Positions 3,648-18,173 of a stretch of DNA of 32,000 bases are shown here, in pieces (the first letter of the stretch is position 1; every line of letters starts with the position of its first letter). A program made the position numbers and the translations under genes. This DNA is from Candidatus Baldrarchaeota archaeon (lineage in GTDB: Archaea; Asgardarchaeota; Baldrarchaeia; Baldrarchaeales; DXJG01), in assembly GCA_019056805.1 (NCBI GenBank), contig DXJG01000009.1, forward strand, positions 1 to 32,000. Direction: 5' to 3'. Under the pieces are notes generated by a model. The model ran no database searches. It saw nothing but the letters and a program-made list of their open reading frames with translations, and was not told where the DNA came from.

Positions 3648-5027
3648 TTAAATTATTTCTCCTATAAGATAAGTTATTTTTGCATCAACCACTTTTATTT
3701 TAACAAAGGTACCTAGAATATTTCTTTCCGAGTATACTACTATTGGTTTATATGCAAAGTTCCTTGCAATAAAACCACCCTTTACTCCTTTCTCTGATAT
3801 TAATGCCTCTCCAACATGCCCTATCCATCTAAGATTTCTTTGTAAAGAGATTTTTCTAACAATTTTAGAAATTTTCCTACTTCTTTCTTTAATCCTCCAT
3901 CCTGGGAGAATCTCATTCATTTTTTCTACTTCAGTTCTAGGTCTAGCAGCAAATCTAGATACATTTGTTATGTCAGGTTGAATATCTTCCAATAATTTAA
4001 TAGTTTCTTGAAAATCTTCCTCTGTCTCTCCGGGAAATCCTACGATTACATCTGTTGATAGCGTAAGCTTTGGAAAAGAACTTCTTAAAACTTCAATGAG
4101 AGCTTTAAATTCTTCTACGGTGTAATTCCTATGCATTTTTTCTAAAATATTGTTACTACCTGATTGAACTGGAATGTGCAAAAATTTGTATATTTTAGGT
4201 GATTTAAACACTTTAATAAGTTCCTCAACAATTTGTGTTAAATAAGCTGGATTCATCATACCTACTCTAATCTTAAATTTAAAAGGTAGATTTTCTACTT
4301 CTTTAAGTAGTTCTGGAAGACTGTATCCTATGTCAATTCCATAAACTGCTGTATCTTGAGCCGTAAGCCAGATTTCTTTGCAACCTTCCTGTAATAATTG
4401 TCTAACTTTTTCTACTATTTCTTCGGGAGGATAACTTTTTAGACGCCCTCTAGCCAGTTTAACTGCACAATAACTACAGTTTCCAAGACATCCTTGAGAA
4501 ATTGGTACAATACCTATTGTTGGATGCGTTTTCACCGAAGGTAAAGTTAATCGTGGAAGAAAATCTTCATCTAAACTAACAATACCTCTTTGCCCGTTTA
4601 CTATTTGAAGAATTATTTCTGGAAGCTTTTCATAACTATCTGGTCCCAATATAGCTGCATAATCTGGCAAAACCTTTTTAATTTTCTCTAAACTTATTTT
4701 CGGCAGACATCCCGCAACGATTATTGGTTTTGAAAACTTTCTAAGCTCTTTCAATCTCTTCAATATTTTAGTTTCTGTTGGAAGCTTTACACCACATGTG
4801 TTAACAATTATGATATTTGCATCATCGATACTATCAGCTATCTCTACACCGTTTTTAACTAGTATTCCAAGTATAACTTCTGTATCTGCCTTATTAAGTG
4901 CACAACCATAAGTTTCCACATATATCCTTATGTTTGAATAATGATTATGCATTTCGAGTCTTTTTGCAACTATCATTTTATTCACATTACACGTTGTTGC
5001 TGTATAATAGAGATACTTCTTAATCAT
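3648..5027 (-). CDS. mtaB: tRNA t6A37 methylthiotransferase, archaeal MtaB/CDKAL1-type (MiaB-like)
   Basis: UPF0004 domain (ETYGCALN, NTCGVK, VAGCLP), radical SAM CLGNCSYC, HIPVQSGS, DVIVGFPGETEEDF, C-terminal TRAM-like ARNFAYKPIV. True start probably 4976 or 4952. Confidence 0.88.
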   Translation of the reverse strand: MIKKYLYYTATTCNVNKMIVAKRLEMHNHYSNIRIYVETYGCALNKADTEVILGILVKNGVEIADSIDDANIIIVNTCGVKLPTETKILKRLKELRKFSKPIIVAGCLPKISLEKIKKVLPDYAAILGPDSYEKLPEIILQIVNGQRGIVSLDEDFLPRLTLPSVKTHPTIGIVPISQGCLGNCSYCAVKLARGRLKSYPPEEIVEKVRQLLQEGCKEIWLTAQDTAVYGIDIGYSLPELLKEVENLPFKFKIRVGMMNPAYLTQIVEELIKVFKSPKIYKFLHIPVQSGSNNILEKMHRNYTVEEFKALIEVLRSSFPKLTLSTDVIVGFPGETEEDFQETIKLLEDIQPDITNVSRFAARPRTEVEKMNEILPGWRIKERSRKISKIVRKISLQRNLRWIGHVGEALISEKGVKGGFIARNFAYKPIVVYSERNILGTFVKIKVVDAKITYLIGEII

Positions 5028-5180: not shown

Positions 5181-8100
5181 CTATATTTCCACAATCGACG
5201 AGTAACTTCTTAAAATTTCTAAACTTTTTCTAGGATAGATCAAGTTTTTCTCGTTTATTAATTGTTCGAGTGTTTTTATTTTTTCTTTAAATTCTATAGG
5301 ACTCATTTGCATAGTCAGATTACTGTTTCCACATTTTGGACATTTACCAGAAAGAGGTAGCCTACGAAAAGTAGTTCTACAGTTTGTACAAATAAATGAT
5401 TGAGTTAAAAATATCGAAAGGGACTTATGAATTTCAATGTCTAGAACATTTTCAAGAAGCTGTTTCGGATCTATTTCACTAAAACAATAGGTGCAAAATC
5501 GTTTTTCAAGATCCTTAAATTTTAAAGTTTTCCCACAATGAGGACAAACGATCTCTTCTATTATCGTCCTGGATACGGGTTTAATTTCGACAGGTTTCGT
5601 TTCTTTTTCCTCTTCATGGCTTACAAACTTAGTTAAGTCTCGTTGTTTCCCTATTGATAAAAGATCTTGCTTTGCGATTCCTAAGGGCTTAAGGATTCGT
5701 TCAATAGGTGGCAAAAGTTGTTTTTCAATATAATAGTTTGCATCTATTTCTAACTTGTTTTCTTGAACATATTTGGGGTCTTCTGCTCTCTCAGCAATAA
5801 GTCCTCGACCTTTTACAATGACAAAAGGTATTCTTTCACCTATGGTTGGTGCTGATCCAGGAGATCTTTTTGCAAGTTTTAAGGCGAGGTAAGCATGAGG
5901 TTGCTTTGCTTTATATTTTTTCGGGGGCTTTGAAAGTGTTCTAGTCATCACTAATCTTTCGATAGGTATTTGACCATGTTTAAGCTTTTGAAGAATGTCT
6001 CGGACATAATTAACTACGAGATTCACGTCTGGCTGTTTTAATAACATATTTATTACTTTTTCTACAACTTCGCCTACAAGATCGCACCATTCTCTCCTAA
6101 CAGTTTCTATACCTTTCGTATCTATTCTATCTTTCCATTCTCCGTTTTGAGTTTTTTCAAACATCCATCCTGCATATCTCTTTTTACTTAATAACAAGAA
6201 AGATTTGTATATTTTTTCGAATTCTAAAAGCATTGGCCGGGGAAGTAACTTCGATATTTCGTTTGATATTTTTTCTCCAAGCTTGGCTGCAGTTTCAAGA
6301 TTTGAAGTATCAAGTTTAATGAGCACACTATCTGTATCCCCATAAATAGTTTCAAGACCATATTTCTCTTCTATAATCCTTCTGGTAAATTCGATGGTAA
6401 ATCTTCCTAATGCTGTTATTGCGTTAGCTACGTCTAGTGAATAAACCCGTGCTCGGAGATAACCAGTATATCCATAGAAACTATTCATCATGATCTTTAA
6501 GGCTAATTGTCTTGCATCCAACTGTCGACGCTTTTCAGGGTCTTCTTCGGTTTTCATAGCCTTTTTTACTTTTACTCGAAGATTCATAAGATCTTTTAAA
6601 ATTTCTGGAAGTAATCCTTCTTTTATATCTTCTGTGACAAACTTCGCTCCAGTAGGAACTTCAACATATTTTTTAACATCTTTAACATCTTTTAGGAGGG
6701 TTGTAAAACATACATTATATGCCATTATTAATGAGGGATACAAACTATTATGTGATAGTATTCCATTAGCAAAATAATATGGTCTACCTTCCAAAGTTAA
6801 ATCATAAACGTAGCCTTCATAATACTCTAACTTTGTCACCGGCTTTTCTAGAATGTAGTTTTCTTTTGCACGCATCCTTCGCTCAGCAATAATCTTACGT
6901 AACAGTTCCCTTTTTTTCTCTGATATGAAATCAACATTTACTAAGAAATTAATTAGATCTTTTTTCCCGTGAATATTTAATGAATATCTTCCATTTTTTG
7001 AGGTACGTCTAACGCTTGGAGGGGTACCCTTCCACAGGTAATATTTAATACCCACCTTATCAAGTAGTTTGCAGATCAATTTTATCTTTTCTTCATTAAC
7101 TGTAGATTGATTAATCTGAATAGTTTTTCTTTCAAGGTTAATGCTTCCGTCTCCCTCGAAAAATCCCCTTAAAACGGCTTCTGGAATAGCTTTATTTTCT
7201 ATATTATTCAAAACGTCAACAACGTCTGTGTATATTTTCTTACGAGAAAATATGATATCATAACAGGAACCACCATCTTTACTTCTGATATATGGTTTAT
7301 AGTTCCATAGACGCTTGGAAATTTTCAATATTCGATCTAATACTTCTATTTCATGCGACGAAATAGATATTGTAATTCGATACTGCTTTGAAATACGATA
7401 ACTATTCCTTTCGCTAGACCAATATTTTGCGTCCCTTCTAAGTAGGTTTCCCTCCGCTAACACTATACCAGCAAATTCACTTAACAACCATAGGTTAGAA
7501 TCTTCATCTCTACATTTATATTGTATTGGATTACGAATGATAAAACCAGATTTCACTACACCGTTAGCTAGTGTTTCAGCCAACCTATCTTTTAGATATC
7601 CCCACTTATAATAAATAGGAAGTTTGTGTCTTGGAGTGCAAAGTAGACCATTCACATTAATAAGATAGCCTTTATACGGATACACATGTACTTTCCTTAC
7701 TTTGTGCCAGCCATCTATTCCTAAAACATAGTCGCCTTCCTTCACTTCGGAAATATCAACTTCCCCTTTCCCTTTCACGACTACTCTCGTACCCTTTGGA
7801 TGACATCTAAAATCTAGAACTAAAACCATGTTGTTTTTATGATAAAGACCTACCTTTGGATCGAGAACGATAGCACCCTTTAAACCATGTTTCTCTCTTT
7901 CTTTATTTCGTTTTTTAATTTCTTCTTGTGAAGGTTTACATGGAATTATAAGGTTTCTTTTCTTACCATAGCGTAAAAGTAATCCTTCGACTCTAGTAGA
8001 TTGACCACCTGATACTACATCTTGCAGAAGTAAACCACTTACCTTTGAAAGTTCAAAATACTTGTCAAGTAAACGTTTTTCCAGCAAAATTTTAAGAGGA

Positions 8101-9209
8101 AGAATAGCATCTTTCCTAGCATAATCTATAAGCTTATTAATGTCTCTACTTTTTCCCATCCAAAGTTTCGGAATATCTTTATAGTCCACATCTAGTTTTC
8201 CTTCATTAATTAACTTTTCAGCCACATGTTCCAAAGTATATCTCTTTAAATGGAAATCTGCCTTTACAAGCGTTCTAACATCAACAACGACTCTTCCTGG
8301 GACTGATACTCTATTATTTTCCCCCGCGTTTTGTATTGTTACATTTTTATCTTCTGCTCTTCCAAACTTTCGACTTATGTTCAAATTTTTTAATCTCTTA
8401 ACAATATATGGAAAGTCGAAGTTTAAGATATTAAAACCTGTTATAATATCCGGATCGTATTTTTCTACGATTTCTATAAAACCTTTTAACATATCCTCTT
8501 CAGTATCAAAACATTCTATGTCCTTATTTGCTTTTTTAATATATTTTCCCACTAGAACTTTCGTTTCAGACCCCATAAATGCCGGATAGAAAGCTAAGCT
8601 AATTATAACTATTGGATCTCTCGAAGGATCTGGTAAGCTCATTAAATCTTTAGGTACACATTCTATGTCAAAACTCATAATTTTGAGAGGGGCATTTCCA
8701 TTTTCTTTCACTAATTTAATTTCCTCTGCCTCTATTTCATAATCTACTTTTCCTAATGTTGTTTTAACATAATTTCCCTTTACTTCTATCCAAGAAAATC
8801 CCCATATATCATAATCTATCATAAAACGATATTTAAACAGAATATCAGCTTCATATATCTCTTCCACGTCATCTATTTTCTTAATTTCATCTCTTATATC
8901 TTTAACTTGCGATGGTTGGTGCACAGTTACCTTTAACACTTTAGATGGTGATTTTTGAAAACCAATAGGCAGAAATTTTTCTTCGAGAGAAATATTGGTT
9001 ACGATTCCCTTAAACCGGTTTACAATTTCATTTGCAACTTCTTTTTCTTTACCATCTAAGGTTTTAACGTAAAAATAAGGATAAAAACCTTTATAGTAAA
9101 CACAACAGCTTTTTCCTTCCTTATCTTTCCCAAATATTCTAATTATTGGGCCGTCACCTGAACCTACAATGTAATCACAATCAATTACTTGCACTTTCTT
9201 TGTAATCAA
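5181..9209 (-). CDS. polB: Family B DNA polymerase precursor (intein-containing) with C-terminal double Cys4 module
   Basis: ExoI SFDIEC, ExoII GFNILNFDFPY, ExoIII YARKDA; motif A DFR/SLYPS split by the intein, motif B RQLALKIMMNSFYGY, motif C YGDTDS, KKRYAG, KGIETVRR. TTG start with GGAGG upstream. Confidence 0.97.
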   Translation of the reverse strand: MITKKVQVIDCDYIVGSGDGPIIRIFGKDKEGKSCCVYYKGFYPYFYVKTLDGKEKEVANEIVNRFKGIVTNISLEEKFLPIGFQKSPSKVLKVTVHQPSQVKDIRDEIKKIDDVEEIYEADILFKYRFMIDYDIWGFSWIEVKGNYVKTTLGKVDYEIEAEEIKLVKENGNAPLKIMSFDIECVPKDLMSLPDPSRDPIVIISLAFYPAFMGSETKVLVGKYIKKANKDIECFDTEEDMLKGFIEIVEKYDPDIITGFNILNFDFPYIVKRLKNLNISRKFGRAEDKNVTIQNAGENNRVSVPGRVVVDVRTLVKADFHLKRYTLEHVAEKLINEGKLDVDYKDIPKLWMGKSRDINKLIDYARKDAILPLKILLEKRLLDKYFELSKVSGLLLQDVVSGGQSTRVEGLLLRYGKKRNLIIPCKPSQEEIKKRNKEREKHGLKGAIVLDPKVGLYHKNNMVLVLDFRCHPKGTRVVVKGKGEVDISEVKEGDYVLGIDGWHKVRKVHVYPYKGYLINVNGLLCTPRHKLPIYYKWGYLKDRLAETLANGVVKSGFIIRNPIQYKCRDEDSNLWLLSEFAGIVLAEGNLLRRDAKYWSSERNSYRISKQYRITISISSHEIEVLDRILKISKRLWNYKPYIRSKDGGSCYDIIFSRKKIYTDVVDVLNNIENKAIPEAVLRGFFEGDGSINLERKTIQINQSTVNEEKIKLICKLLDKVGIKYYLWKGTPPSVRRTSKNGRYSLNIHGKKDLINFLVNVDFISEKKRELLRKIIAERRMRAKENYILEKPVTKLEYYEGYVYDLTLEGRPYYFANGILSHNSLYPSLIMAYNVCFTTLLKDVKDVKKYVEVPTGAKFVTEDIKEGLLPEILKDLMNLRVKVKKAMKTEEDPEKRRQLDARQLALKIMMNSFYGYTGYLRARVYSLDVANAITALGRFTIEFTRRIIEEKYGLETIYGDTDSVLIKLDTSNLETAAKLGEKISNEISKLLPRPMLLEFEKIYKSFLLLSKKRYAGWMFEKTQNGEWKDRIDTKGIETVRREWCDLVGEVVEKVINMLLKQPDVNLVVNYVRDILQKLKHGQIPIERLVMTRTLSKPPKKYKAKQPHAYLALKLAKRSPGSAPTIGERIPFVIVKGRGLIAERAEDPKYVQENKLEIDANYYIEKQLLPPIERILKPLGIAKQDLLSIGKQRDLTKFVSHEEEKETKPVEIKPVSRTIIEEIVCPHCGKTLKFKDLEKRFCTYCFSEIDPKQLLENVLDIEIHKSLSIFLTQSFICTNCRTTFRRLPLSGKCPKCGNSNLTMQMSPIEFKEKIKTLEQLINEKNLIYPRKSLEILRSYSSIVEI
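6747..7805 (-). mobile_element. Intein with LAGLIDADG homing endonuclease (353 aa) in PolB motif A (Pol-1/pol-a site)
   Basis: Starts at Cys (CHPKGTRVVVKG, TGT 7805-7803), ends ...FANGILSHN (AAT 6749-6747), +1 residue Ser. Removal restores DFRSLYPS. Endonuclease blocks FAGIVLAEGN and LRGFFEGDGS are present. Confidence 0.96.
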
Positions 9210-9490: not shown

Positions 9491-11023
9491 CTATTCACTA
9501 CTTTTCTTTAAATACATCTTCCAGGTTAGAAAGAGAGTTTTGGGTCTAGCTGCCATCGCTTCATCAAGTTTAGTAACCGATGTATTATGTGGGGCACTCA
9601 AAACAATTTCAGGATTACTATATGCTTCTTCTGATATTTTTCTAAGCGATTCGATGAACTCGTCCATTTGCTCTTTTGTTGCTGTTTCAGTTGGCTCGAT
9701 CATAAGTGCTTCATGGACTATTAACGGGAAGTACATGGTTGGTGCATGGATACCAAAATCCAGAAGTCTCTTAGCTACATTTAAAGCTCTCACCTTGGTG
9801 TCTCGTTTCAAAGGTGATGCGCTAAAAACACACTCATGTTTTCTAGGTTTATCTTTCCCGTACGGAAGTTCAAAACCTTTTATTTCCTTTAATTTTTTAA
9901 CTAAGTAATTGGTGTTTAATACAGAGATTTCAGCAACTGTTTTAAGCCCTTCTTCACCTAATGCGAGAATGTAGGCAAAAGCTTTGACAAGAACATTGAA
10001 ATTTCCATAAAATCCCTTAACTTTACCAATCGAATGAGGTCTATCCCAATCTAAGTAGTATTTTTCTCCATCATATTCTACAAGAGGTACAGGAAGAAAC
10101 TTTTCAAGTTCCTTTGTAACACCAATTGGACCAGCTCCAGGACCTCCCCCACCATGAGGTGTTCCGAAAGTTTTATGCAAGTTTAAATGAACAATATCAA
10201 AACCCATATCACCAGGTCGAACTTTTCCCACAATAGCATTAAGATTTGCCCCATCGTAATAAAGTAACCCTCCAACGTCATGTACAATTCTTGCAATCTC
10301 CTCTATCCTTTCCTCAAAAATTCCTAACGTATTTGGATTCGTTAACATTAAACCTGCGGTTCTTTCAGAAACTGCAGCCTTTAAAGCTTCTATATCTACG
10401 CAACCATTTTCGTTGGAAGGTACAACAATGACTTTAAAACCGCCCATTGCAGCGCTAGCAGGATTTGTACCATGAGCCGAGTCTGGAACGATAATTTCAT
10501 CTCTTTTATCAAGTTCTCCGTTATACTCATGATAAGCTCTAATTAATTGCACTCCCGTAAATTCTCCATGTGCACCGGCAGCTGGTTGCAAAGTAAATCG
10601 ATGCATTCCCGTAATTTCTGCAAGCCATCTTTCAAGTTTATACATTAATTCTAAGGCACCTTGAACGGTACGTTCGTCTTGATAAGGATGAATCCACATT
10701 ACTTCTTCCATTGAAGCTAGTTCTTCATTTATTCTTGGATTATACTTCATAGTACAACTGCCCAAAGGATAAAAACCTGTATCTACGCCATAGTTCATTT
10801 GAGATAATCTAGTATAATGCTGTACAACTTCTACTTCTGAAAGTTCTGGAAGCTTAGGTTCATCTTTTCGCCTCAACTTTTCAGGGATAAGTTTTTCTAT
10901 ATCTCCTACTTCCTTTTTCACTTCGTCATCAGGATTCGGTACTATATGACCAATTCTTCCTTCTCCACCAATTTCAAATATAAGTGGTTCCAACCATTTT
11001 GCCTGTTGAAATTCCTTAACCAT
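9491..11023 (-). CDS. gcvPB: Glycine cleavage system P protein, beta subunit (PLP-binding)
   Basis: [45 protein letters not shown] lysine motif [26 protein letters not shown] 11023 lies 1 nt after the gcvPA stop (track start 11044). Confidence 0.96.
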
Positions 11024-11024
11024 T

Positions 11025-12434
11025 TTACCTACCCCCTTCAACAATTTCCTTAATTGCTGAAACTAATTCGTCTATATCTTCCTTTGTGTGGATCTCTGTA
11101 ACACAGAGCAACATGGATTCTCCGAATTCTGGAAATTCCCTTTTTACATTTTTTCCTCCATGAATTCCTTTTTCCAAAAGTTTTTCATGAACAGTTTCGA
11201 CACTAATACCCTCTCGGTAGAAAGTAACTAAAAATTCTTTAAAATGAGGAGCCTTGAAATAAGGAGCTTTTACCCCGTCAATCGCATTTAATTTTTTCAT
11301 TGCATAATGAGAATTATAAAGTATAGTTTTACCGAGCTCAACAATTCCCTTTTTACCAAGTAAGGAGAGATATATTGCAGCTGCAACTGCACAGAGAGCT
11401 TCATTACTACATATATTTGAAGTAGCTCTTTCTCTCCTAATATGTTGTTCTCTTGTTTGAAGAGTCATAACAAAACCTCTATATTTTCCATCTTCAGACT
11501 TAGTCATCCCAATTATTCTGCCAGGCATTTGGCGAATAAATTTCATATCGTCTTTTGTCGCAAAAATTCCTAAGAGTGGACCCCCGAAGTTTAAAGGATT
11601 TCCCAGGGGTTGTCCTTCACCAACAACTATATCAGCATCATAGTCTCCCGGTGGACGTATAACACCCAAAGAGGTAGGATCAACACCAACAACAAGTAAG
11701 GATTCATTTCTATGAGCTATATCACTAACTTCGTCAACTTGAGTTTCCAAAAAACCAAGATAGGAGGGATTCTCTATATATACCCCAGCCACTTCACCTC
11801 TAAATTCATTAAACTTAGAGTCCAAGTCATTTAAGTCCAGTTGACCTGTATCCCTGTTAAAGTTCACCTGGACAATTTTAATACCAGCAGATTCTGCATA
11901 TGTTTTGAGGGTGGAAAATCTTTCGGGATGAATGATTTTTGGCACTAAAAATACCTTTTTCTTTGTCAGTCGATTTGTCATTAACGCAGCTTCGCCTAGG
12001 GCACTTGCCCAATCGTACATTGAAGCGTTTACAACAGGCATTTCTAGTAATTCTGCCATTAAACTTTGATATTCAAAAAGAGTTTGTAACATGCCTTGTG
12101 AAATTTCTGCTTGATAAGGTGTGTAACTGGTTAAAAATTCTCCCCTACTAATTAAAGCTTTAATAACAGCTGGAATATAATGCGGCCAGACACCAGCACC
12201 AAGAAAAGTGCACATATCAAGTACAGTTCTATTTTTCTTTAACATCCTTCTAACTTGTTTAAAAATTTCATATTCACTATGTACTTTCGGTAATTTCAGT
12301 TTTCCTTTATAAAAAAGTCTTTCTGGTACATCTGAGTACAATTCGCTAATATCATTTACACCAATTTCCTTTAATAACGTGTTACGTATCTTTCTTGGCG
12401 AATTCGGTATATAGGGATGAGCATCTTTTTCCAA
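11025..12434 (-). CDS. gcvPA: Glycine cleavage system P protein, alpha subunit
   Basis: [65 protein letters not shown]; TTG start with GGAGGTG RBS. Confidence 0.96.
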
Positions 12435-13007: not shown

Positions 13008-14735
13008 GTGAAAAAAACAAATATTTCACTAATACTAATGACTACTATAATACTCCTAACCCTAATAGTAAACTCCACAACGCAAGCACAAACCAGCCAA
13101 AACCTCATAGTTTTGGAAGCTACCCGGACAATAAATGTTGAGAACTTTGGACTCCTAAATGTAACTGATACAATAACTATAAAAAATAATGGAACAATTC
13201 CCGTGTCAAGTTTTAAGATAGCTATTAAGAAAGATTTCGTTAAAAATTTATGTTACATAGGAGTTAAAGATCAAGACAACAGAAAGTTAGAATTAAAATA
13301 CATAGGAGTAGAAGAAACTACCAACTACACTTATTGGGAAGTTTTCTTTAACGAACCAATAAATCCCGAGAAAACTAAGAATCTCATAGTAATAACGGTA
13401 TACGGTGGTTTAATAAATCCAATACCAGAAAGCGAGCAAACGTATGAATTCAACTTTTACTATTATCCTACCTTACCGTATTATATAAAGAATTGTAAAG
13501 TAGAAATAAAAATTCCAAGAGGAGCAACAACAAAAAATGAAACATCACCTATAGAAGTATCAGACCTTTCCCCTCTAACTTACAAAACTTTCTACTTCCA
13601 ATACAACTATACCAGAAATTCGCTGATAAACGTAGAATTCCAAAGAGAAATAAAACCTTATGATATAGCCTACATAAAGGTAAAAGAAACTTATGTGCTA
13701 AAAAATATTGGTTTTTCAACTATCGAAAAATGGGAATTTAAACTACCAGAAGGTGCCACAAAAATATCCGTCTCTGATGCAGCAGGACCAATAAAGGCGG
13801 ATATAGACCAAGGAAACTTAACAACAAAAACAACAGTGACCATATCATTTACCAGTGGAAGAAAGGAAGTACTAGGACCTGGTATCATATATACGATACA
13901 TGTAGCCTACCTACTCCCAGCAGATACTTATCTTAAAAATATAAACACAGCTTACAGATTAATCGTACCAATCTATCCCGAAGTTCCAGCACTCGTAACA
14001 AAAGGAACAACTATTATAATACTACCAATTGACACAAAAGTTAATCCACCAAAAATAGAAACAACGCCAACAGGCCAAATACTCCAGCCACAAATAGAAC
14101 AAAATAAAGTCATCTACACATATTATAATACAACAGCCTCTACAGGAAATCTAAAAATTAATATAACATATAGTGTCAACCCACTTTACACTTTAACGAG
14201 ACCACTAACATATGCTGCAATTCTTACAGCAATAGCAACAATATACATAGCTACTAGAAAAGTCCGAGTCGCAGTAACACCGCCAACTGTAGAAGTTCCA
14301 GTCGCAGTACCTGTGCCTACACCTATCATAAACGAATTCTGTAGAGTATATGAAGAGAAATTAGCATTGCTACTAGAACTAGACAAATTAGAAGAAGCAT
14401 TAAAAACGAGAAAAATAAAGAAAAAGGACTACAAAAGAAGATTAAAGATATACGAACGTGAACTCATGAATGTAAATAAAGAAGTAGAGAAAGTAAAAGA
14501 AGAGCTGAGAAAAGCAGCACCAAAACTCGAAGACTACATAAAACGCATAGAACTTCTTGAAGCAGAAAGAGAAAGCGTAAAAGCAAGCATAAACCAACTT
14601 GAAAGAAGCTACAAAACAGGAAGAATTACAAAACTAGCTTATGCAAAGCTAAGAAGACAATATGAAGGAAGATTAAGAAAAATCTATTCAAATATGGATA
14701 AAGTAATCTTTGAACTCAGAGAAGCAACCAAATAA
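13008..14735 (+). CDS. Ribophorin I / OST1-like type I membrane protein
   Basis: Signal peptide; two similar beta-rich extracellular modules (TRTINV...VTDTITIKNNG and QREIKP...VKETYVLKNIG); at least eight N-x-S/T sequons; one TM helix (PLTYAAILTAIATIYIAT); about 140 aa K/E/R-rich cytosolic helical tail. Architecture matches ribophorin I; no alignment was run. Confidence 0.72.
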   Translation: MKKTNISLILMTTIILLTLIVNSTTQAQTSQNLIVLEATRTINVENFGLLNVTDTITIKNNGTIPVSSFKIAIKKDFVKNLCYIGVKDQDNRKLELKYIGVEETTNYTYWEVFFNEPINPEKTKNLIVITVYGGLINPIPESEQTYEFNFYYYPTLPYYIKNCKVEIKIPRGATTKNETSPIEVSDLSPLTYKTFYFQYNYTRNSLINVEFQREIKPYDIAYIKVKETYVLKNIGFSTIEKWEFKLPEGATKISVSDAAGPIKADIDQGNLTTKTTVTISFTSGRKEVLGPGIIYTIHVAYLLPADTYLKNINTAYRLIVPIYPEVPALVTKGTTIIILPIDTKVNPPKIETTPTGQILQPQIEQNKVIYTYYNTTASTGNLKINITYSVNPLYTLTRPLTYAAILTAIATIYIATRKVRVAVTPPTVEVPVAVPVPTPIINEFCRVYEEKLALLLELDKLEEALKTRKIKKKDYKRRLKIYERELMNVNKEVEKVKEELRKAAPKLEDYIKRIELLEAERESVKASINQLERSYKTGRITKLAYAKLRRQYEGRLRKIYSNMDKVIFELREATK

Positions 14736-15986: not shown

Positions 15987-18173
15987 ATGAAGATAGAGAA
16001 ACTCAGTCAAATACCTGGTATTGGCTCAAAAGTTGCAGAAAGACTCATTAAATACATCGGAAGTGAAGAGGAAACAATAAAGGCTATCATTGAAGCAGAT
16101 ATTACTAAGCTTATGTCAGTTCCTGGTATCGGTCAAGGTCTAGCAACTAAAATTATTAGAAATGCGTACTCAATAATTGAAGGAGTTTCCTTGGAAGAGG
16201 TTTTAAAAACATTAGACGCTAGAAAGATGTATGAAAGAATATTAGATATTATTCGCAACTATACTAGAACTAATTATAGTAAAAATAAATTAACGTTATA
16301 TTTTCCTCTTCCTCCTCGAAAAATAAATGTAATGCTTGAGAGATTAAAGTATTTTGCCGAAGCTAAAAGTCTCGTTGAGAATCTGGATGATGAACTATTA
16401 AATAAAATTAAAAATCAGCTTTCTAAGATTAGACCTCTTCGTGCGGGAAAAATCGAGAGACGGATAAGCGATAGGGTTATACTAACCGACGATGAAGAAG
16501 TTTTCAACAAACTACATGAACTAGAATTAAATAAAATTACCAACTTATTCTTAGTTAAACCCGGTGAAAGCTTGGGAGAATACGTTCAGTCCTATGACCT
16601 TGTACTTTTTATTTCTAGTGGTGCGCCTTACGATACTGCCATAGACTATGCTTTTAATGCTGAAGTTGTTGGAAAAGATGTTTCCATTGAGTTTTTAATT
16701 CCAGAACTAGTTATTTCCTTTTTTTCCACAAATTACGAGGTTATCAAAGCTGCTTGTGAACTTGGGAAATATGTTCATTCTCTTCCTGATAAGCCCGCTA
16801 TTACAAAATTTAAAGACCACATTGACCTACAAAAGCTTGAGGATGTAGAAAAATTACTTTTAACTTTAACTGAGAGTGGTGATATAAAAGAAGAAGTTGA
16901 TGAAGAACTAGATAGGTTAAGAAATGCCTTAAACAATCTACAAACCATAATTGGCGATATAGAAGTTCAGATCAACGATGAAGTAAAAGAAAAAATTATG
17001 GAACATAAAGTTATCATTGAAGGAGAACGACTTCTTGATTTACTAAAAGAAGCTGCTGCAAGCGAAGCCGGAAGCGAAAGTCTCAAATCCGTATTTCCAG
17101 AGTTATCTGGTGAACTTTTAGAGGTTATTACTGAAATCTGTCAACGAGCTGAAGATCTTGTATGTCAAAAATTGAAATTAACAGGGGAAGAACTAGAGTT
17201 TGTTGAAGGATTATTTCCAAGAGACCTAATATTACCGATCCAAGCTGATAGTAGAAAAATCAGTTTATTGGAAGATTTTCTTAGAAAAGAGTATACTTTA
17301 AGAAGATATAAAATGCTTAGGGAAATAGCCCTAAAACTTAACGAGTTGAAAAGAAGCGTTGAAGAAGCCGTTAAGACCCTTCTTGATTTTGATCTCTTCT
17401 TTGCGGTTGGTCTTTTTGCTAAAGATTATTCTTTGAATGTTCCTAATTTAAGCGAAGAATATGTAGGCATTGGGTTTACTAAAGGACGAAACCTGTTCTT
17501 AAGGGAACTAGAACTAAAAAGTAAAATCAAAGTTATTCCAGTTGACTATGTTGTTGGGGATGTTTCTATTCAACCGCCTAACACTAACAAAGAAAGAATT
17601 ATTGTTTTAAGTGGAGCAAATAGCGGCGGAAAAACAACACTACTCAATTTAATCGCCCAAATAGTTATACTGGCACAAATGGGCTTTCCTGTTCCTGCAG
17701 ATGAAGTTTATCTATGTCCCTTTGACGAGATATATCTCTTTTCACGTTCAAGAGGTATCATGGACGCTGGAGCTTTCGAAGCAACTCTTAAAAACTTTGC
17801 CAAAGTTATCACAAGTCCTAAAAAGAAACTAGTACTTGTGGACGAGTTAGAAGCCATCACCGAGCCTGGCGCAGCGGCAAAAGTAATTGCAGGAATCTTA
17901 GAACTCCTATATAGTAGTAAGAATACATGTGCAGTCTTTATTAGCCATTTAGCTGAAGAGGTAATGAAAGTTGTAAAGGTTCCTATTAGAGTAGATGGCA
18001 TTGAAGCCAGCGGCTTAGATGAAAATTTAAATTTAATAGTCAATAGAAACCCCATATACAATTATCTCGCTCGATCCACACCCGAATTAATAGTAGAAAG
18101 ACTCTACCGCTTATCTAAGGGAAGCGAAAAAGAAGTTTATGAAAAACTCCTTGAAGAATTTGGAGGAAAATGA
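15987..18173 (+). CDS. Archaeal MutS-family ATPase with N-terminal tandem HhH motifs (MutS5-like; no mismatch-binding domain I visible)
   Basis: IPGIGSKVAERL and VPGIGQGLATKI HhH motifs; Walker A SGANSGGKTT; DAGAFEATL; Walker B LVLVDELE; FISHL. Confidence 0.85.
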   Translation: MKIEKLSQIPGIGSKVAERLIKYIGSEEETIKAIIEADITKLMSVPGIGQGLATKIIRNAYSIIEGVSLEEVLKTLDARKMYERILDIIRNYTRTNYSKNKLTLYFPLPPRKINVMLERLKYFAEAKSLVENLDDELLNKIKNQLSKIRPLRAGKIERRISDRVILTDDEEVFNKLHELELNKITNLFLVKPGESLGEYVQSYDLVLFISSGAPYDTAIDYAFNAEVVGKDVSIEFLIPELVISFFSTNYEVIKAACELGKYVHSLPDKPAITKFKDHIDLQKLEDVEKLLLTLTESGDIKEEVDEELDRLRNALNNLQTIIGDIEVQINDEVKEKIMEHKVIIEGERLLDLLKEAAASEAGSESLKSVFPELSGELLEVITEICQRAEDLVCQKLKLTGEELEFVEGLFPRDLILPIQADSRKISLLEDFLRKEYTLRRYKMLREIALKLNELKRSVEEAVKTLLDFDLFFAVGLFAKDYSLNVPNLSEEYVGIGFTKGRNLFLRELELKSKIKVIPVDYVVGDVSIQPPNTNKERIIVLSGANSGGKTTLLNLIAQIVILAQMGFPVPADEVYLCPFDEIYLFSRSRGIMDAGAFEATLKNFAKVITSPKKKLVLVDELEAITEPGAAAKVIAGILELLYSSKNTCAVFISHLAEEVMKVVKVPIRVDGIEASGLDENLNLIVNRNPIYNYLARSTPELIVERLYRLSKGSEKEVYEKLLEEFGGK

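Follow-up and report, generated by a model that had tools for sequence, protein, structure and literature searches.

The gene considered here is located in the genome of a Candidatus Baldrarchaeota archaeon (assembly GCA_019056805.1, contig DXJG01000009.1), within the first 32,000 nucleotides of the contig, and this whole stretch is hereafter called the window. It occupies positions 5181..9209 of the minus strand as a single open reading frame with a TTG start and encodes a family B DNA polymerase (PolB) of 1342 amino acid residues, which bears an intein and ends with a C-terminal zinc domain. The protein is already known: it was published as "B6-aenigma2" and "PolB3-DP2CTD", and an identical 1342-residue sequence is on record (P0002). 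Its closest homologues belong by name to Candidatus Baldrarchaeia (53–90% identity over residues 823–1342). The source genome (G000) has a size of 1.92 Mb and is 91% complete, and the contig that carries the gene is 338,768 bp long.

All parts of the gene described below lie on the minus strand. According to Pfam matches and motifs, the N-extein (residues 1–468, 7806..9209) comprises the N-terminal domain, the 3'-5' exonuclease domain and the first half of motif A (DFR). The polymerase part of the C-extein (residues 822–1185, 5655..6746) begins with SLYPS of motif A and contains motif B, motif C, the KKRY element and the thumb. One exonuclease domain (PF03104, residues 117–329, E 2e-43) and one polymerase domain (PF00136, E 1e-121, split by the intein) were recognised by Pfam, both being single in NCBIfam too, and neither database found a second PolB module in the 1342-residue protein. 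The exonuclease motifs ExoI (FDIE, residue 180), ExoII (NILNFDFPY, 260) and ExoIII (YARKDA, 363) are intact, as are polymerase motifs A (DFR/SLYPS over the splice junction), B (KIMMNSFYG, 905) and C (YGDTDS, 956), with KKRY at residue 1009. This single module thus has the set of motifs of a proofreading-proficient family B enzyme, as was supposed in a preliminary description made from the sequence alone; the five segments quoted there are all present, and its span (5650..9209) corresponds exactly to the core without the tail.

The intein (residues 469–821, 6747..7805) consists of 353 residues, contains a LAGLIDADG homing endonuclease (PF14528, PF14890, TIGR01443) and is inserted into motif A with the borders LDFR/CHPKG and LSHN/SLYPS. 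Its removal leaves 989 residues, the same length as in the intein-free homologue P0003. The presence of this intein is polymorphic in close relatives: it was found in the window protein and in P0006 (1340 residues) and is missing from P0003, P0004, P0005 and P0007 (987–989 residues).

The C-terminal domain (CTD; residues 1186–1342, 5184..5654), delimited by a sequence match to DP2, an AlphaFold2 (AF2) model and fold matches, is a tail of 157 residues with four CxxC pairs. Between the thumb and this tail, there is a box resembling PCNA-interacting protein (PIP) motifs, GKQRDLTKF (residues 1187–1195, 5625..5651), which was aligned with the RQxxLFDF boxes found in the B6 polymerases of DPANN archaea and probably contacts PCNA. 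It is followed by the first C4 module, CPHC-x13-CTYC (residues 1222–1242, 5484..5546), equivalent by motif and alignment to CysA, then by a long helix and the second C4 module, CTNC-x12-CPKC with FRRLPLSGKC (residues 1274–1293, 5331..5390), which is equivalent in the alignment to CysB and to Zn-III of DP2. Two terminal helices complete the protein.

Affinities of the tail and the catalytic core

In sequence, the tail is closest to DP2, the large subunit of PolD. NCBIfam models of this subunit match residues 1259–1333 (E 7e-8), and a phmmer search against Protein Data Bank (PDB) sequences gave residues 1100–1176 of Pyrococcus abyssi DP2 (E 1.3e-7), the Pol epsilon CTD having an E value of 0.19. 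The Pfam family PF14260 (zf-C4pol) gave no match in the window protein at E<=0.1.

For the study of the fold, the tail was modelled by AF2 on an alignment of 18 rows (mean predicted local distance difference test, pLDDT, 75.5). Foldseek matched the model to DP2 and to the CTDs of Pol epsilon and Pol alpha with E values from 1e-4 to 5e-4. In VIA-align comparisons, the human Pol epsilon CTD was the best match, with both zinc modules covered (7pfo_B, Z 9.2, 122 residues aligned, root-mean-square deviation (rmsd) 5.5; 5vbn_B, Z 9.1, 120 of 125 aligned, rmsd 5.1), and yeast Pol epsilon gave Z of 7.4–8.6. DP2 reached Z 7.7 over 95 residues, mostly of the second module (6t8h, Z 7.9 over 121), and Pol alpha, with Z of 6–6.9, was the lowest of the three families. 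CTDs of Pol delta or zeta were absent from the fold matches listed, which does not show that their folds are different. The model thus has the two-zinc helical CTD fold of the Pol epsilon type; its likeness to the Pol epsilon CTD extends over both zinc modules, and that to DP2, in sequence and in fold, over the second module and the terminal helices. The CTD had been called epsilon-like in the preliminary description. This is fair for the modelled fold, but by sequence "DP2-derived" describes it better.

The tail has a narrow distribution. Among 301 Asgard genomes, it was found whole only in the same genus, in all three of its other genomes, and in a diverged form in a 1019-residue frame of the only other family of the order that was sampled. 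Some match to the tail exists in 277 of these genomes, being limited outside the order to the second module; the frames in question have about 1100–1750 residues, the size of DP2, and were not checked one by one. Within the B6 group, the tails of Baldrarchaeia comprise about 150 residues with two modules, and those of DPANN archaea about 34–86 residues with at most one C4 module (both CxxC pairs in 39 of 70 sequences, one pair in 31). The single DPANN module is aligned with the second module of Baldrarchaeia and with DP2 (FRRxPLxGxC), and neither the DPANN B6 tails nor the DP2 alignment contain the first module. B6 polymerases of the Methanosarcinales type have no tail.

One further sequence with two modules was met in a Logan contig of 3678 bp. 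It is P0246, a B6 polymerase of 1014 residues with a 167-residue tail, which stands at the base of the Methanosarcinales-type B6 (97/87), a group without tails, and not with Baldrarchaeia; its residue composition, rich in Ala, Arg, Val and Gly, is unlike that of Baldrarchaeia proteins. Its two-module tail, together with the basal branching, suggests that the full two-zinc CTD may be ancestral to all B6.

The catalytic core has other affinities than the tail, as had been proposed. In HMMER comparisons with PDB sequences, the best score was that of human Pol delta (426 bits), followed by yeast Pol delta (384), Thermococcus B3 (355; about 350 for B3 of Thermococcales), Pyrobaculum B3 (298), Pol alpha (280) and Pol zeta (231). 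Over 842 profile columns, the identity of the core was 0.32 to Pol delta, 0.31 to B3, 0.45 to DPANN B6 and 0.37 to Methanosarcinales-type B6. The remark in the preliminary description that the quoted segments resemble Pol delta as well as archaeal B3 was accurate, since some of them are nearer to the one and some to the other, and all are closest to B6.

Two more PolBs are encoded in the same genome. P0123 (791 residues) is an ordinary B3 enzyme with 829 bits to Pyrobaculum PolB3 (5mdn) and just 213 bits to Pol delta; it terminates with QVSLFDFMKK, whereas the window protein runs about 150 residues beyond its PIP-like box. P0124 (1346 residues) is of B1 type according to its PDB sequence match (781 bits to Saccharolobus Dpo1, 1s5j) and is encoded on the minus strand of the same contig as the window gene (C17:180295-184335, locus L009:3295-7335). 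It contains its own intein of 446 residues (654–1099, PVAE/CLHPD and LVHN/STTAIG), the insertion site of which differs from that of the motif-A intein.

For the phylogenetic analysis, inteins and insertions were stripped from a profile-based alignment, and a FastTree overview of 270 sequences was followed by a maximum-likelihood (ML) tree of 80 sequences and 821 columns, obtained with IQ-TREE under LG+C20+F+G4 with posterior mean site frequencies (PMSF) and rooted on B1. Pol epsilon, B2, B5 and B7–B10 were not included, and B1 was represented only by P0124, so the tree is silent on the modules of Pol epsilon and is only weakly rooted. Few eukaryotic sequences were obtained from the word-indexed homologue search. 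The Pol delta rows are mostly 50% representatives anchored by P0169, P0174 and P0188, which are named or marked by Pfam, and by P0273 (Creolimax). P0189 (Saitoella), at first taken for a Pol delta, was dropped as such; its long branch joins zeta, and it was treated as zeta-like.

In this tree, Baldrarchaeia form a clade (support 100/100) that is sister to DPANN/Aenigmatarchaeota B6 (98/95), and both join the Methanosarcinales-type B6 in a B6 supergroup (96/98). The B3 sequences form a clade of their own (99/95), in which the core is not nested. All non-B3 groups are joined at 93/97 as a polytomy of four, namely Pol alpha, B4-like sequences, a delta+zeta set and the B6 supergroup. The delta+zeta set (100/99) also takes in groups c35 and c7, one row of which comes from a Promethearchaeota metagenome-assembled genome, and the Pol delta clade itself (99/90) leaves out the window protein. 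The long-branched B4-like sequences P0168 and P0170 (Thermoplasmata/Aciduliprofundum, about 1120 residues) fall into the alpha/delta/zeta/B6 assemblage and not with B3; B4 was likewise placed with this assemblage rather than with B3 by Kazlauskas et al. (PMC7544198).

Topologies were compared using fast constrained searches and the approximately unbiased (AU) test under PMSF C20 and LG+F+G4. The grouping of Baldrarchaeia with B3 was rejected under both models (p=0.002 and p=7e-5, respectively). The union of the whole B6 with B3 was not rejected (p=0.44 and p=0.22), nor was that of Baldrarchaeia with eukaryotic and viral clades to the exclusion of DPANN B6 (p=0.21 and p=0.086). Comparison of sequences therefore places the core firmly in B6. 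An ordinary B3 can be discounted just as firmly, since B3 and B1 are encoded by genes of their own in this genome. The deeper link of the core to delta, zeta and alpha belongs to the ML topology, is statistically insecure and is only suggestive because the AU test does not reject B6+B3 (p=0.44), which agrees with the published inability of topology tests to order these clades (PMC12680538). The core had been described as delta-like; it does stand in one assemblage with alpha and delta/zeta, but it is not like delta in particular, its nearest relatives being DPANN B6.

The predicted DP1 partner and the proposed two-subunit enzyme

DP2 was not found in the source genome: PF03833 gave no match, and the full-length polC model matched only the tail of the polymerase itself. 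Nor was it found in any of the four genomes of the same order that were searched (82–96% complete). DP1, the small subunit of PolD, was found in the source genome and in three of these four, and both DP1 and DP2 were found in an Asgard genome from outside the order. The DP1-like protein P0122 (459 residues, PF04042 by profile match) is encoded on the minus strand of contig C6 (locus L006:1339-2718).

P0122 and the tail were modelled as a complex, which obtained a score of 0.83, the best of three controls having 0.00; the mark applied is attained by 58 of the 80 solved complexes and by 2 of the 110 mismatched pairs. The runs agreed in >=90% of contacts, the pLDDT of the partner was 71–72, and the modelled interface is formed by the second zinc module and the terminal helices. 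Since complexes of DP1 with DP2 and of B-subunits with CTDs are already solved, the model may have passed due to its likeness to these structures, and this result supports binding of P0122 to the tail but does not show it.

The sequences of the Baldrarchaeia DP1s are unusual in their phosphoesterase motifs. In calcineurin-like/Mre11 phosphoesterases, motif III supplies an Asn that binds metal and a catalytic His. All eight Baldrarchaeia DP1s (P0122 and seven homologues) have GE[N/A/T/M]D in place of the canonical GNHD in motif III, and, at motif II, GDLIN[D/N] followed by a deletion in place of GDxxDGxGIYP; motifs I, IV and V are retained. Due to the loss of Asn-His in motif III, the Baldrarchaeia DP1 is probably a catalytically dead, structural B-subunit.

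Taking these data together, the gene very probably encodes the CTD-bearing family B polymerase of Baldrarchaeia, the catalytic part of a proposed two-subunit Pol delta-like enzyme that would replace PolD. In the proposed mechanism, protein splicing would remove the motif-A intein and give a 989-residue enzyme with one active polymerase site and one active proofreading site. The internal PIP-like box would probably contact PCNA, and the two-zinc CTD, a homologue of the DP2 C-terminus, would dock onto the DP1-like small subunit. The latter would act as a structural B-subunit, with proofreading provided by the PolB exonuclease, and the holoenzyme formed in this way would take over from PolD as the predicted main replicase.

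Several points weigh against this proposal. Splicing of the intein is assumed, and the case for this particular protein is computational. The B1 and B3 polymerases are also encoded, and either is a possible main replicase. The genome being only 91% complete, DP2 is "not found" rather than proven absent. DP1 keeps motifs I, II (the first Asp), IV and V, so that residual nuclease activity is possible.

In an alternative origin, the Baldrarchaeia enzyme is a side branch of DPANN/Methanosarcinales B6, maybe acquired horizontally or with a mobile element, and its eukaryote-like architecture may go back to an independent fusion with a DP2 tail, not being a relic from before the split of alpha, delta, zeta and epsilon. 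In our opinion, this is conceivable but less likely than not. In the tree, Baldrarchaeia are sister to DPANN B6 and not to eukaryotes, and alpha, delta/zeta, B4-like and B6 form a polytomy, which the topology tests of Feng et al. could not order either (PMC12680538); the union of B6 with B3 passes the AU test under both models; the fusion was met in one order only among the 301 Asgard genomes, and a viral provenance of B4 and B6 was suggested by Kazlauskas et al. (PMC7544198). On the other hand, the ML tree joins B6 with the eukaryotic enzymes and not with B3, and the topology uniting Baldrarchaeia with eukaryotic and viral clades without DPANN B6 survives the AU test under PMSF. Moreover, the two-module CTD fold, the order of PIP box and then CTD, and a DP1/B-subunit partner are also features of eukaryotic catalytic subunits.

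It is highly improbable that the gene codes for an ordinary archaeal B3 repair polymerase with an unrelated zinc-ribbon extension, although the label "PolB3" of Feng et al. and the nearly equal identities of the core to B3 and Pol delta could be read in this way. This identity was rejected, as the genome has its own B3 (P0123), the tree and the AU test separate Baldrarchaeia from B3, and the tail is specifically DP2-like, folds like the Pol epsilon and Pol alpha CTDs and is predicted to bind DP1. Mis-binning of the contig, with a gene derived from an Aenigmatarchaeote or another DPANN archaeon, is hardly credible and was rejected too: homologues were deposited as Aenigmatarchaeota, Thermofilum and Odinarchaeota, but the long contig also holds the B1 PolB, the window contains a ribophorin I homologue and has an even GC content (33–38%), the three further genomes of the genus all carry the gene, and the Aenigmatarchaeota labels were ascribed to mis-assembly by Feng et al. 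(PMC12680538).

No replication genes adjoin the polymerase among the neighbouring genes of the window. Directly upstream, at 9491–12434 on the minus strand, both subunits of the glycine cleavage P-protein are encoded (PF02347, PF21478), and a MiaB-like radical SAM/TRAM enzyme lies downstream (3648–5027, minus strand). The ribophorin I homologue (PF04597, E 3e-17), an Asgard-type gene, is located at 13008–14735 on the plus strand, and a 728-residue protein with N-terminal helix-hairpin-helix motifs and an ATPase similar to MutS domain V is encoded at 15987–18173, also on the plus strand.

Relation to known polymerases and significance

Archaeal group B6 was defined within a "Delta-like" clade by Kazlauskas et al. 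(2020, Nucleic Acids Research, PMC7544198), who described the CTD of B6-aenigma2, with its two metal-binding motifs, as clustering with the CTDs of DP2, Pol epsilon and Pol alpha. They also pointed out that DP2 is missing, and they proposed a scenario for the origin of eukaryotic polymerases from PolB, the DP2 CTD and DP1. They named RLJ05308.1 and OYT28452.1 as B6-aenigma2. Both proteins cluster at 90% with P0004, which is closely homologous to the window protein (core identity <=88%; 81% over residues 823–1342). B6-aenigma2 was placed mostly in Aenigmarchaeota in that paper, whereas the host of the window protein belongs to Baldrarchaeia, in line with the later correction by Feng et al. (2025, Nature Ecology & Evolution, PMC12680538), who reassigned these sequences.

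According to the latter authors, Baldrarchaeia have three PolBs per genome, have lost DP2 and have retained DP1, and the Baldrarchaeial DP1 binds PolB-DP2CTD in a yeast two-hybrid assay and in AlphaFold3 (AF3) models (PMC12680538, section 6). Their tree of PolB domains ties the Baldrarchaeial enzyme to alpha/delta/zeta, and in their stepwise model the PolB-DP2CTD fusion precedes the delta/alpha duplication and the fusion that gave epsilon. The window protein is a member of this Baldrarchaeial PolB3-DP2CTD, or "Pol delta-like complex", having the same lineage and architecture: its core groups with B6, its CTD is DP2-like with two C4 modules, DP1 was found and DP2 was not, and it is close to the published members. 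Nothing essential differs, and the window copy has a motif-A intein that is absent in several close relatives. Neither inteins nor the degenerate motif III of DP1 are mentioned in the main text of PMC12680538.

Other known polymerases share only a part of these features. DPANN/Aenigmatarchaeota B6 (B6-aenigma1), the sister of the core, also have a PIP-like box followed by a C4 module similar to Zn-III of DP2 (FRRxPLxGxC), but, unlike the window protein, they are devoid of the first module and the terminal helices. Pol delta (POLD1/Pol3), the best-scoring solved relative of the core, likewise combines active exonuclease and polymerase with a thumb followed by a cysteine-rich CTD, which binds a DP1-homologous B-subunit in Pol delta and is predicted to bind DP1 in the window protein. 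The CTD of Pol delta is of the zf-C4pol type, with Zn in CysA and Fe-S in CysB. The window core, however, stands outside the delta clade, PF14260 gave no match, and the tail resembles the zinc-type CTDs of epsilon, alpha and DP2. In Pol epsilon, two PolB modules stand in tandem, one of them inactive (PMC2669801), in contrast to the single exonuclease and polymerase module of the window protein. An ordinary PolB3 ends at its C-terminal PIP box and falls into the B3 clade, and the window protein differs in both respects.

The supposition in the preliminary description that a delta-like core with an epsilon-like CTD could represent a state preceding the alpha/delta/zeta/epsilon split is consistent with our data but goes further than they show, and it is not new, being the model already presented in PMC7544198 and PMC12680538. 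All eukaryotic replicative polymerases are built as a PolB core with a zinc tail derived from PolD, to which a subunit of DP1 type is bound, and the occurrence of this architecture in an Asgard archaeon bears directly on the origin of the eukaryotic replisome, a significance already recognised and partly tested experimentally in these two papers. The window adds one more genome-resolved member, which bears an intein, an independent re-derivation of the main points and two small leads, which perhaps reach further than the main texts of these papers. If the loss of motif III abolishes the nuclease, the conversion of DP1 into a dead B-subunit would already have been made in an Asgard lineage; as to the tail, the full two-zinc CTD would be ancestral to B6 and would later have been truncated in DPANN archaea or lost in Methanosarcinales. 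Taken jointly and judged by the sequences compared here, these two leads are offered as a tentative and rather doubtful proposal.

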